Shown: piece by piece, positions 32,054-35,949 of the stretch | Position numbering within the stretch: position 1 is the stretch's first letter | Layout: each line of letters opens with the position of its first letter | Virus record (IMG/VR): IMGVR_UViG_3300020460_000030 | Span: 1-35,949 of that record | Source: a virus | Taxonomy: Duplodnaviria; Caudoviricetes | Direction: 5' to 3' (one strand) | Length of the DNA: 35,949 nt | Notes under the pieces: generated by a model | The model's input: the letters and a program-made list of their open reading frames with translations, nothing else | Database searches by the model: none | What the model was told of the DNA's origin: nothing | Position numbers and translations under genes: made by a program

Positions 32054-33589
32054 TTATGCATCTTTAAATAATACGAAATTGTTTGCACCTTGAACGATTA
32101 AACATCTTTCAGATAAATAGTGCATTCTCATTTCATCAATTGGAGAACTTGAAGGTCCACCAACAGATCCAGTAACCCAAGACTTATTTTTTCTATTTTC
32201 AGTCTCAGAAGCTCTGTATCTAATATGCAAGAATGGTCTCTTGATATTTTGGCCAAGGACTTGGTCATAAACTGTAGAAGTACCAGCAGGTACTAATACA
32301 CCTTCGATGTCACCAAAACCTCCTCTTGTAGAAAAGTCATTTAAATATTTCCAGTCAGTTTTATAGAAGTCATAAGAACCTCTTCTGTAACCTGTAAATC
32401 CTAAAGTTAACGCCATATCCTCGCTGTTATTAAATACACCAAAAGAAGTTCCTCCTGAGTATCCACCATTTTGTTGTGCAAGAATGTCATCAATTTCTAA
32501 AGAAAGATTTCTATCTAAGAAAAGCATATTTTCTTCAATAGCACCTTGTTTGTCTAACTGTGTTAAAACTGCGTCAAAATCAGTTAAAGCACCGCCACCA
32601 CCTCCAGCTTGTGCACCAAATCCTGAATATACATTTCCTCTAGCTTCAATAGCTTCAAAGAAACCTTCAGTACCTCTAGCAGTTGCTGTAAGTGAAGAAT
32701 CGTAAAAATCCAAAGTAGCACCAGTGTTTAATTGTTTAACACCTTCAACCATAGTCATTTCCATATAATCTTCCCAACGTAATCTATTTTCGTGTTCAGA
32801 TTTTAAATACCATAAGTATCCGCTAGCTCCATTTTCAGAAGTAACTTCAATCCATCCAATTTGTGCAGTGTCAGAACCATTAATAGAATAATGCTCTTTT
32901 AAAATTATAGGACTGTTCTTAAATGTAGCATAGCTAGGATCTAATTTTTCAGTAAAGTTAGAAGATCCTTTTGCAAATTCAGAACCATAAGCAAGTGCAG
33001 TAAATCTTTGTGCATTTGTAATAGCAGGAACACCACCATAAGCTTTAACTTGAAAGTATTGTCCACTAACATTAGTAACAATACCTTTAATCATAGCACC
33101 AGTTCCTCCAATTGCAGATGTTGCGCTTGTTTGAGCTTGAATCATAACTGTTTGACCTTTTCTAAAGTTAACAGCTGTTGTACCCTGTGAAGTAACACCT
33201 AAGCTAGTTGGTTGAGCAGTTGGGACAAAAAAGTTTCCAACGCTACCACCTGTAGTTACTGCAGAAGCAGTTCCTGGAGTTGTACCACTAGTAGGCATAG
33301 TTCCAGCGTTACTTAAATAAACGATATTTGCATATCTTGTGTGCAATCTACCTTGCTCAGTCCAAATAATTTGGTCTGAAGTAGAAGGCATCTCCGCAGA
33401 TACCATACGTAAGAAAGAACCGATAGATCTGTTTCCATATCTTTCAACTTCTTGCTCGTATACATCTGGTAAAAATTGTTGAGCCCACTGATTAAAACTT
33501 GAATCAGTGAAATCGATATAGTTCCCTGAATATAATGCCTTAGTTTGAGTTGGTTGTAAGGCAGCGGGAACGCCACTTGTAAAAGCCAT
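32054..33589 (-). CDS. major capsid protein
   Basis: 511 aa, after the scaffold and before a terminator; QFLPDVYE.E.ERYGNR, IWTEQGRLH, LGFTGYRRGSYDFYKTDWKYLND, HYLSERCL. Confidence 0.85.
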   Translation of the reverse strand: MAFTSGVPAALQPTQTKALYSGNYIDFTDSSFNQWAQQFLPDVYEQEVERYGNRSIGSFLRMVSAEMPSTSDQIIWTEQGRLHTRYANIVYLSNAGTMPTSGTTPGTASAVTTGGSVGNFFVPTAQPTSLGVTSQGTTAVNFRKGQTVMIQAQTSATSAIGGTGAMIKGIVTNVSGQYFQVKAYGGVPAITNAQRFTALAYGSEFAKGSSNFTEKLDPSYATFKNSPIILKEHYSINGSDTAQIGWIEVTSENGASGYLWYLKSEHENRLRWEDYMEMTMVEGVKQLNTGATLDFYDSSLTATARGTEGFFEAIEARGNVYSGFGAQAGGGGGALTDFDAVLTQLDKQGAIEENMLFLDRNLSLEIDDILAQQNGGYSGGTSFGVFNNSEDMALTLGFTGYRRGSYDFYKTDWKYLNDFSTRGGFGDIEGVLVPAGTSTVYDQVLGQNIKRPFLHIRYRASETENRKNKSWVTGSVGGPSSSPIDEMRMHYLSERCLIVQGANNFVLFKDA

Positions 33590-33611: not shown

Positions 33612-34901
33612 TTATTGTTTAAATTTAATGCGCAACTTATCCGAAGAATTACCTGAAACAACTCTAATTTTATCACCCGAAGACGTAGTAATTACAGAAT
33701 TATCTACTCTAGGATTCATATCAATATTGTTAGCTTTTTTAGCAGCTTCTTTTATAGCGTCGGCACGGCCTTGCTCATAGAAGTGATTAGCTATTTTATC
33801 GGCATTTCGTCCAGCAAATAATGCTTTATGATATTCATTAGCATTACCTAAACTACCATCTTCTGTAATATATTCATTAATAAAGTTTTTCAAGTCTGAT
33901 TGATATTTTTTTACATTTTCCGTATTATCTATTTTAAATCTATATTTGTTTTCACCAACCTGAAAATCAAAACCTTTGAAATCTTTATTGAAAACTTTTT
34001 CTGTTCGATCTAAAAATATTTTTTGTTGTTTTTGCCAATCTTCTTGTTCTTGTTGCTTAGCATTATAATACTCCATTGCTTGGACATATTTAGGATCAAT
34101 ATCTTCTTGCTTTCTTAACTTAAGATCTGCATAATATTTTTTCTTAGAATTGTCAAAATAATTTTGAGCATTATAAAGTTCTTCTTTAAAAGCTAATTTT
34201 TTAGCTTTTATATCTGTTGGTTCATCTGTTTCTTCATCATAAGAAAAGTTTTTATTCATTAAAAAACTTAAATCATCAGAATCAAGATGAGGTTTTGTAG
34301 ACTTATAATATTCTCTTAAAAGAGATATGTTATCCATCTTTGAAAAGTCTCTATTTAGATTAACATAATCTTCAAGACTTCCGCCGGTTTCTTCCATAAA
34401 TTTTATAAGATTGTCTACATTTTCTGGAAGCTCTTGTGTTTTAGCTTCCGGTAATATTTTTTCTTGTTCCTGTACGGGCTCGGGGTCTTTAGTGCTTGTA
34501 TCCACTCCTGCCTCGTCAGTTGTATTTTTTTCATCTGTAACAAGTTCTAAAGGTGATTCTACTTCTTCCCTTTGTTTTTCTTCGTTACTTTGATTTTTTT
34601 CTTTTTGTTTATTTTCTCCGGCAGGCTCTTTAGACTTTTCTTTGTCTTCCGCTTGAACCTTTTCGCTAGTTTCGGATCCGTCGCGTACAGATACCTCATT
34701 TGTGCTTTGCTTCTGAACGGCATCCTTATTTTCTTTTTGTGGTTTATCTAAATTTACTTTATAAACTCCATCAGGTTGTAATCCATAATCTGGGTTTACA
34801 TCTCCTTCTTTAATAGCTGTATCCAAAACAGCAGCTTCTTTTTCTTGCGGTGAAGTTTCTTTTTTGTCTTCAACCGGTTTTACTTGTACTTGTTCTTCCA
34901 T
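33612..34901 (-). CDS. capsid scaffolding-like protein
   Basis: Very acidic, low-complexity N-terminal third; helical remainder; sits between portal and MCP. Confidence 0.7.
   Translation of the reverse strand: MEEQVQVKPVEDKKETSPQEKEAAVLDTAIKEGDVNPDYGLQPDGVYKVNLDKPQKENKDAVQKQSTNEVSVRDGSETSEKVQAEDKEKSKEPAGENKQKEKNQSNEEKQREEVESPLELVTDEKNTTDEAGVDTSTKDPEPVQEQEKILPEAKTQELPENVDNLIKFMEETGGSLEDYVNLNRDFSKMDNISLLREYYKSTKPHLDSDDLSFLMNKNFSYDEETDEPTDIKAKKLAFKEELYNAQNYFDNSKKKYYADLKLRKQEDIDPKYVQAMEYYNAKQQEQEDWQKQQKIFLDRTEKVFNKDFKGFDFQVGENKYRFKIDNTENVKKYQSDLKNFINEYITEDGSLGNANEYHKALFAGRNADKIANHFYEQGRADAIKEAAKKANNIDMNPRVDNSVITTSSGDKIRVVSGNSSDKLRIKFKQ
34415..34534 (-). CDS. overprinted (+1 frame) 39-aa basic peptide with ArfA-like NKKKYxRKxKH motif
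   Basis: MKKIQLTRQEWIQALKTPSPYRNKKKYYRKLKHKSFQKM*, nested in the scaffold gene. Confidence 0.55.
   Translation of the reverse strand: MKKIQLTRQEWIQALKTPSPYRNKKKYYRKLKHKSFQKM
34559..34723 (-). CDS. overprinted (+1 frame) 54-aa basic protein of the MPFxSxAQ type
   Basis: MPFRSKAQMRYLYATDPKLAKRFKRKTKKSLKSLPEKINKKKKIKVTKKNKGKK*; A at -3, -6 and -11 to -13 before the ATG. Confidence 0.65.
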   Translation of the reverse strand: MPFRSKAQMRYLYATDPKLAKRFKRKTKKSLKSLPEKINKKKKIKVTKKNKGKK

Positions 34902-34930
34902 AATATATAATAAAATAATTAAACTTTTTT

Positions 34931-35949
34931 TTATTTAGGTTCAAATCTCGATAAATCAAACCCACCTAATACATCATTGCCTTTAGATTCAAAAGATTTT
35001 TTAGGCTTTTCAGTTCTAGGCGGCCCTTGTATTTTATTAATAGAAATTTTTTCTTTACTTCTATTTTGCTTTTCAACTAATTCTTTTTGGGCCTCTAACT
35101 CTAGTTGTTTTAATTTGACATTTAAATCATATTCAAACTGCATTAATTGTTTTTTTGTTCTTGCTTCAATTTCTAATTTTTTAATATCTAACTCAGCAGA
35201 ACTAGTTTGAATTTGTATTTTAGACTCTGTTTTTACTTGCTCAGCTTGTGCTTTAGCCTGTTCTATTTGAATTTGTGCTTGGCCTTGTGCTTCAGCTTGG
35301 GCAACACTAGCAGCTTGAGCTTGTTGTTGATCAGCTTGTTGTTTTTTAACTCTTCTAAATTTAAGAAGCTGATTAGCTAATTTTGTATTATTAATATCTC
35401 TAATATCAATAGCGTCTTCTAAAAATATACTGTTTTGAGCTAAAGCAGCTTGTATATTTGCTTCTAATAAAGCTTTTTCTTCTTGATCTGGTTCTAATTC
35501 TAAAAATATACCAAAATCGTGCATGTGTAATTCTTTTAATTCATTTAAAGAACCTACAGTAAATTTTCCTAATGCAGATATAAAAGCTTCTTTTTGAGGA
35601 TGATAATTTAAAACATCTTTAAATCTTAAAGATATTGCCTCAGCAATACCTAATGTAATAGACATACTGCTATCTAATATATGTCTTGTTGCAGTATTAC
35701 TATTTGCTGCAGCTAATTTTTGTACGCCTACTAATGCTTTTGGATCGGGATCAGATCCATCTCTAGCTTCATTTAATCCTGTAATATCTCGAATCATTTG
35801 AAGATATTGATTATAAGCTGTAATTAAAACTTGTATTTGATTACCTCCCCCACCTGGTAATTCTTGAATAGGCACTTTGCCTTGATTAGGATCGCCATCA
35901 ACAGTTAATGATCTACCTATTATAGATCCTGTTTGAAAATACATATTCA
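34931..35949 (-). CDS. portal protein, C-terminal part (partial, starts beyond window)
   Basis: MYFQTGS; IRD.TGLNEARDGS.P...LVGVQKLAA.NSNTAT.HI; Q-rich C-terminal coiled coil; upstream of scaffold and MCP. Confidence 0.85.
   Translation of the reverse strand, partial: NMYFQTGSIIGRSLTVDGDPNQGKVPIQELPGGGGNQIQVLITAYNQYLQMIRDITGLNEARDGSDPDPKALVGVQKLAAANSNTATRHILDSSMSITLGIAEAISLRFKDVLNYHPQKEAFISALGKFTVGSLNELKELHMHDFGIFLELEPDQEEKALLEANIQAALAQNSIFLEDAIDIRDINNTKLANQLLKFRRVKKQQADQQQAQAASVAQAEAQGQAQIQIEQAKAQAEQVKTESKIQIQTSSAELDIKKLEIEARTKKQLMQFEYDLNVKLKQLELEAQKELVEKQNRSKEKISINKIQGPPRTEKPKKSFESKGNDVLGGFDLSRFEPK

Follow-up and report, generated by a model that had tools for sequence, protein, structure and literature searches.

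Can the acidic linker of a phage structural gene hold a second, basic gene in another reading frame, and if so, which of the two readings is older and what would the small product do? The question is raised by the window, which is the whole stretch of DNA analysed here and represents a partial phage genome of 35,949 bases (55% complete). An earlier note on this sequence had proposed that a basic gene of 54 codons was overprinted on the acidic linker of a head scaffold.

The host gene and its nested genes

The host gene encodes 429 amino acids on the minus strand (33612..34901), where the gene order is portal, 429-aa gene, major capsid protein and tail genes. The 3' part of the portal gene (34931..35949, minus strand; phrog_6547, E 6e-45) lies upstream and the major capsid protein gene (32054..33589, minus strand) lies downstream. 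A short A/T-rich spacer that is near-identical across relatives runs from the portal stop to the scaffold start (34901-34935). No match to the 429-aa protein was obtained in Pfam and PHROG searches, and its homologs carry the labels 'structural protein' or 'hypothetical'. The gene likely encodes the head scaffold, a name taken from its position between portal and capsid genes and from the acidity of its product (computed pI 4.9). The protein consists of a conserved N-terminal part of ~59 aa, an acidic linker (about residues 60-159) that contains two nested genes, A and B, and a conserved C-terminal domain. The capsid protein matched 85 GenBank records from Elemovirus, Panino, ctfjg026 and Cellulophaga podophages (phi38:1/Calle among its relatives); a marine member of the Flavobacteriia is therefore the likely host of this phage, as judged from these relatives.

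Nested gene A (34559..34723, minus strand) was present with the sequence quoted in the earlier note, reading from 34723 to 34559 and lying in +1 relative to the 429-aa ORF (34901-33612). It is wholly inside the host ORF, on the same strand and in a shifted frame, which is the architecture of embedded genes of the Rz1/Rz type. Its 54-aa product, a member of the PHROG 1375 family, is strongly basic as had been claimed, with a computed net charge of +21, a pI of 11.1 and a mass of 6.5 kDa. AlphaFold2 predicted two short helices at residues 6-15 and 17-26 (mean pLDDT 86), beyond which the product has a Lys-rich tail. Scaffold GC3 was 0.41 over the first 37 codons of gene A vs 0.12 upstream and 0.16 in the C-terminal domain; this rise in G/C at third positions, also reported earlier, arises because each third position of a scaffold codon falls on the second position of a nested codon. 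When 24 window ORFs of more than 120 aa were scanned for same-strand ORFs of 28-90 aa with K+R>=0.28, only A and B were found. Gene B (34415..34534, minus strand) encodes a 39-aa basic protein in the same +1 frame as A, with a weak match to PHROG 6310.

Selection on the nested frame and its translation start

Of 100,000 trials in which the scaffold residues were fixed and synonymous codons resampled, 67% kept the +1 frame free of stops over 54 codons and 49% did so with an ATG; open-frame length was consequently dropped as evidence for gene A. The C-terminal domains of 79 scaffold homologs likewise held 88 ATG-led +1 ORFs of >=25 aa. Selection was estimated as pN/pS, from uncorrected pairwise counts among related sequences with bootstrapping over codons. 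Over gene A, nine distinct scaffold-found sequences gave 0.10 in the +1 frame (95% bootstrap 0.04-0.17) and 0.95 in the scaffold frame (0.55-2.34), and the pattern was unchanged without the first 11 codons. The same nine sequences gave 1.65 in +1 vs 0.23 in the scaffold frame upstream of gene A, and 1.23 vs 0.18 in the C-terminal domain used as a control. The comparison of both frames suggested earlier thus located constraint in the +1 frame over gene A and the reverse in the flanks, so that the embedded frame shows the purifying selection that marks an embedded gene. Among 21 aligned sequences, the most variable scaffold codon position was the third outside gene A and the first inside it, the latter being the +1 wobble position. 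This evidence is decisive: constraint on the +1 frame over gene A exceeds chance, and the small protein is kept while the overlying scaffold residues drift neutrally. Over gene B, pN/pS was 0.18 in +1 vs 1.16 in the scaffold frame.

The gene A ORF was kept in 19 of 19 loci found with the scaffold, one of them cut by a contig end. A sample independent of the peptide was drawn by searching with the C-terminal domain and taking the best 80 of 597 homologs (44-69% identity, from 3/64 parts of the collection), one of which was left out for an absent N-terminus (n=79). A family HMM built from independent gene calls matched 40 of the 79, always in +1 and always with a peptide starting with M; 6 further homologs were divergent members by eye, giving 46/79 carriers. 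Gene B alone was found in 13, other basic ORFs in 5 and no nested gene in 15. Median scaffold N-terminal length was 139 aa with gene A vs 121 aa without a nested gene. In a scaffold tree (FastTree, 137 rows) carriers and non-carriers were interleaved, a pattern that cannot separate gain from loss.

A nested two-gene cassette had also been proposed. The second nested basic gene does exist (34534-34415), but the pair is not fixed: A and B occurred together in 3/79 homologs (4 counting a degenerate copy), and at 6 loci (L007-L012), representing 4 distinct close relatives, B was interrupted by premature stops while gene A was intact. Gene B is under selection, has a weaker start context than A and is often lost or broken; its relatives were nested at 111 of 120 loci, free at 8 and cut at 1. 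Further basic +1 ORFs of other kinds were observed in the same linker, some with Cys-Gly-Cys motifs (L116, L118, L122, L127, L131, L150, L152, L154, L172), and these probably represent more nested families. One family-A copy was found in each of 5/5 positive genomes. No family-A match was found anywhere in two near-complete genomes with the scaffold, nor in the cultured phages phi38:1, phi18:3 and Panino, so the family is not a core part of the head.

The region before the nested ATG (34724..34743, minus strand) is A-rich and weakly structured, has A at -3, -6 and -11 to -15, which includes all the positions noted earlier, and holds no Shine-Dalgarno sequence at working distance; the scaffold frame reads Lys/Glu/Gln codons there. 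Adenines at -3, -6, -12 and -13 raise initiation in Flavobacterium johnsoniae, as described in PMC6847099. On a start-context matrix trained on 177 ordinary starts, all of them predicted, 101 nested ATGs scored 2.78, near the 3.54 of those same 177 starts, vs -2.92 for 1,739 other +1 ATGs, the scored relatives being non-independent samples; the Bacteroidetes-type context claimed earlier was thus borne out. Local folding was weaker at nested starts (-1.9 vs -5.9 kcal/mol), and A stood at -3 in 0.89 of them vs 0.51 of 409 other +1 ATGs within the linker. SD-like words preceded 1/75 nested and 14/40 free copies. The start of gene B in the window scored -1.2. Gene A would quite probably start independently at its own ATG, to judge from its sequence context.

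Programmed frameshifting or slippage in the A-rich run upstream of gene A, which would fuse the scaffold N-terminus to the basic domain, is very improbable. Six database proteins do join the scaffold N-terminus to the nested peptide (P0005, P0033, P0036, P0040, P0056, P0204), but all are single-member clusters from short contigs and the junction of P0204 lies elsewhere, as expected of sequencing errors. A +1 stop was located 0-2 codons before the ATG in 17/101 nested copies, only 10/101 had A runs of 7 or more, all 40 unbiased HMM matches began with M, and free homologs start at the same Met. The six fusions are probably indel errors that exposed the hidden frame to gene callers. Four of 23 listed RNA runs were analysed; all gave contigs of relatives at low share, one of them spanning the nested gene, and none is able to show transcription or translation.

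Relatives outside the scaffold and the age of the two readings

The gene A peptide matched PHROG 1375 at E 1.5e-4, as did 103 of 120 aligned family members at E<=0.001. Searching GenBank phages with the window peptide by tblastn gave no match; relatives surfaced only with other members or with the profile, which matched at least 1,536 short database proteins, a lower bound on family size. The N-terminal Met-Pro was invariant in the 120 aligned members. Close peptide alignment retrieved 74 loci, with 66 copies nested in scaffolds, 1 in another gene and 7 free. A different family motif retrieved 120 loci, with 75 copies inside scaffold genes, 40 free-standing and 5 cut or ambiguous. Stand-alone homologs, which the earlier note had claimed, are therefore numerous. 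The ORF is homologous to 40 free-standing genes with stop-rich alternative frames, its purifying selection is confined to the +1 frame and its indels are in-frame; together these leave next to no probability that it is an unexpressed by-product of an E/K-rich linker, even with +1 ORFs as common by chance as they are here. The 54-codon gene A is very probably a real protein gene.

Free copies occur in the vicinity of genes for terminase, portal or capsid, in the company of further small basic genes. Annotated examples are Barnyard gp9 and Patience gp10, each directly after the portal gene; the latter scored 21.4 bits as a homolog, where the best of 1,000 shuffles reached 9.5, and is 62% identical to Barnyard gp9 (36.5 bits). 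phiKZ gp165.1 is a marginal homolog, with 15 bits against 13.9 for the best of 1,000 shuffles. Free-standing family-A genes were observed unannotated in cyanophages S-CBS2 and P-RSP2 (L183:5001-5111; L184:4001-4123), and a run of small Arg/Lys-rich genes stands right after the portal gene in Patience (genes 111, 10, 11 and 12, L476:182-1245) and Barnyard (L461:6119-7445). The 201phi2-1 paper PMC11512511 does not mention gp383. Gene A shares the PHROG 1375 match with the free copies of S-CBS2, P-RSP2, Barnyard and Patience. Known members of PHROG 1375 are ordinary gene calls, whereas gene A is wholly inside another gene and was missed by annotation, as was also the case in Elemovirus gp18.

In 110 of 120 longer proteins (P0123-P0242) the family-A domain was N-terminal, often followed by KxA or xxGG motifs, which we take to be possible protease sites. 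Some of these longer proteins carry PF18905 or PF19846. A Pfam search of the 120 family members gave no convincing match. Membership in DUF3008 (PF11450) was rejected, as 0/120 members matched it at E<=0.1; it is the nearest named ESM Atlas cluster (0.86), with family A in 37% of its members, and serves as a lead only. Sequence matches in the PDB to designed beta-propellers were spurious sums of weak repeats. Fold searches gave no PDB match at E<=0.001 (best Z 2.1), the 47-aa model making such searches weak, and the viral fold matches were uncharacterised family-A members.

Nesting is not confined to scaffolds. A third motif found 13 loci: in 6 the copy was nested in the +1 frame of a giant ORF, in 1 it lay within a scaffold gene, and 6 were free-standing. 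Three of the giant ORFs aligned mutually, one weakly and two not at all within the fetched DNA; pN/pS for the three mutually aligned giant-gene copies was 0.20 in +1 and 1.01 in the host frame. Genome G009 has a scaffold without family A and carries the family in the gene of a 2,937-aa protein, and ctfjg026 likewise has a scaffold without it and a nested copy in a giant gene. The cultured Elemovirus elemoF 6-3D also has a scaffold without family A, and an unannotated 42-aa member lies in +1 of its giant structural gene gp18 (NC_055853 52379-52507; L463:1501-1629). A total of 68 Elemo records hold this nested gp18 copy at 99% identity or more. A partial repeat of the nested start was seen upstream in Elemovirus gp18, together with another basic +1 ORF at L463:487-609. 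L329 and L335 have family A in GC-richer giant ORFs that could not be aligned to the other giants, and L335 seemingly has a second nested-like segment just upstream. PMC7077304 held nothing on Elemo phages. Every nested host gene found belongs to the structural module.

The direction implied by "overprinted on the acidic linker" was not supported, since the small gene belongs to a widespread family under constraint and the scaffold residues over it drift. De novo overprinting with the small gene as the new frame agrees poorly with the data: homologs exist outside the overlap, and the host frame, which as the ancestral one should keep the stronger constraint, has a near-neutral pN/pS there. Because homologs occur across unrelated phages, the linker residues over gene A are neutral and outgroup scaffolds are without gene A, the small gene is probably older and the linker the newer reading. 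Free copies had a mean of 4.4 stops in the would-be host frame, and only 1/40 was without any over 36 codons. At wobble sites nested copies used T at 7% and G at 46%, compared with 29% and 18% in free copies. These stop counts and wobble usage indicate that the host frame constrains only stops and composition. Since the scaffold N-terminus matched one of five outgroup scaffolds without a nested gene above shuffles (9.5 bits; best 6.3 in 489), the comparison leans towards insertion of the gene into the linker rather than overrunning by a 5' extension.

Proposed function and significance

The chances are about even that the gene A product is a head-associated, nucleic-acid-binding passenger that is accessory and non-essential, a proposal resting on its charge, its position in the head module and its dispensability. 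The mechanism into which this fits, a captured, selected and independently started gene, is put forward as a whole at similarly even odds. A small gene that predates the overlap would have been captured inside a linker that needs only to stay open, long and acidic. Its Lys-rich codons, read one base earlier, would give Glu/Lys/Gln, and wobble bases would have been retuned to remove stops. Translation would begin on the head-operon mRNA at an A-rich, SD-less site supplied by the Glu/Lys codons themselves. Nesting would tie expression of gene A to head assembly, and the two-helix core and Lys tail of the product would bind DNA in or entering the head. A complex prediction with the capsid protein, the scaffold C-terminal domain and the peptide scored 0.00 and was uninformative either way.

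Proteomic data exist for one free homolog. Expression of Patience gp10 is shown by 7 spectra, and the protein is listed among those of the virion. Table S1 of that study (PMC4324244) divides its stringent spectra into 1 from particles, 4 from 30 min and 2 from 2.5 h, and gives 30-33 particle spectra for each of the basic neighbours gp11, gp12 and gp111. The count for gp10 is weak evidence either way, because a K/R-rich protein yields few tryptic peptides.

A real gene whose product acts in the infected cell, on the host nucleoid, ribosomes or a defence system, with nesting giving only late, high expression, is an unlikely reading, and several observations would fit it. Family A is patchily distributed and gives way to unrelated small genes at its site, behaviour typical of accessory genes for host interaction, and gp10 was seen more in infected cells than in particles in the Patience table (PMC4324244). 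phiKZ gp165.1 is transcribed as a separate unit in the direction opposite to the genes around it (PMC10914365) and tolerates transposon insertions, with 1,518 insertion reads in a table that lists 3 for gene 175 (PMC12676376); the accessible part of the Fossati 2023 supplements (PMC10449902) has no row for it. However, free copies cluster in head and packaging modules beside small basic genes that are particle-associated in Patience, and the restriction of nested copies to structural-module genes also argues against a role in the cell.

It is improbable that family A is a capsid-targeting or capsid-lining module that binds a head protein and carries fused cargo into the prohead, in the manner of the T4 capsid-targeting sequence or Patience gp4. 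Its N-terminal position in longer proteins, the motifs that often follow and the invariant Met-Pro would suit such a role, and T4 uses N-terminal propeptides for capsid targeting according to PMC9026906. Patience gp4 (PMC11965321) serves as an analogy only, its sequence having entered the comparison through the PDB search. Carriers have unrelated capsids, being cyanophages, mycobacteriophages, jumbo phages and Flavobacteria podophages, so one conserved protein partner is unlikely, and neither the sequence nor the fold searches matched any solved capsid accessory protein.

For the head-passenger proposal, the working analogy is with T4 IPI-IPIII, which are small, largely dispensable, variable between relatives and associated with head assembly (as outlined in PMC9026906); they are encoded by free genes and carry a targeting propeptide that is cleaved off, the searches found no resemblance to them in sequence or fold, and the gene A product would be packaged on this proposal. 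Patience genes 91 and 20 contain out-of-frame, same-strand embedded ORFs that proteomics found to be translated (PMC4324244). These resemble gene A in lying on the same strand inside annotated genes of a tailed phage, but they are without database relatives and generally unconserved, whereas gene A is conserved in hundreds of loci. No account of family A, or of genes nested in these scaffolds, turned up in the literature searched, which did not extend to virion-proteomics reports on Elemovirus and Cellulophaga phages.

The embedded genes known from phages are rare fixed pairs, or else new frames that arose over old genes. Lambda Rz1 lies in Rz, and phiX174 E lies in D and B in A; the inner gene shares the strand of the outer one but not its frame, and has its own start. 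D is an external scaffold, over which E is held to have arisen as a new frame. Gene A is like these in being small and fully contained, in a shifted frame, within a larger gene of the same strand. They are fixed pairs, whereas family A has many free homologs and several unrelated host genes, gene A is exchanged for other small genes at its site, and its host frame is unconstrained. Here an old, widespread family travels within other genes, and it is the linker of the host protein that is free of constraint.

At least one nested basic ORF was present in 64/79 scaffold genes, about four in five, of an abundant group of marine Flavobacteria podophages. Phage proteomics databases lack such ORFs because gene callers miss them, and 'conserved' acidic motifs in these scaffolds and in giant virion proteins only mirror the genes hidden beneath them. 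The nested copy in cultured Elemovirus phages makes expression and function directly testable. We tentatively suggest that acidic linkers of phage structural genes may be reusable slots in which +1 basic genes from old free-standing families are captured, swapped and lost, in the scaffold of one lineage and in a giant virion protein of sister lineages, with the codons of these genes supplying the acidity of the linker and the start signal of the next gene. Their products may be histone-like head proteins of abundant marine Flavobacteria phages, a class that has so far gone unrecognised.
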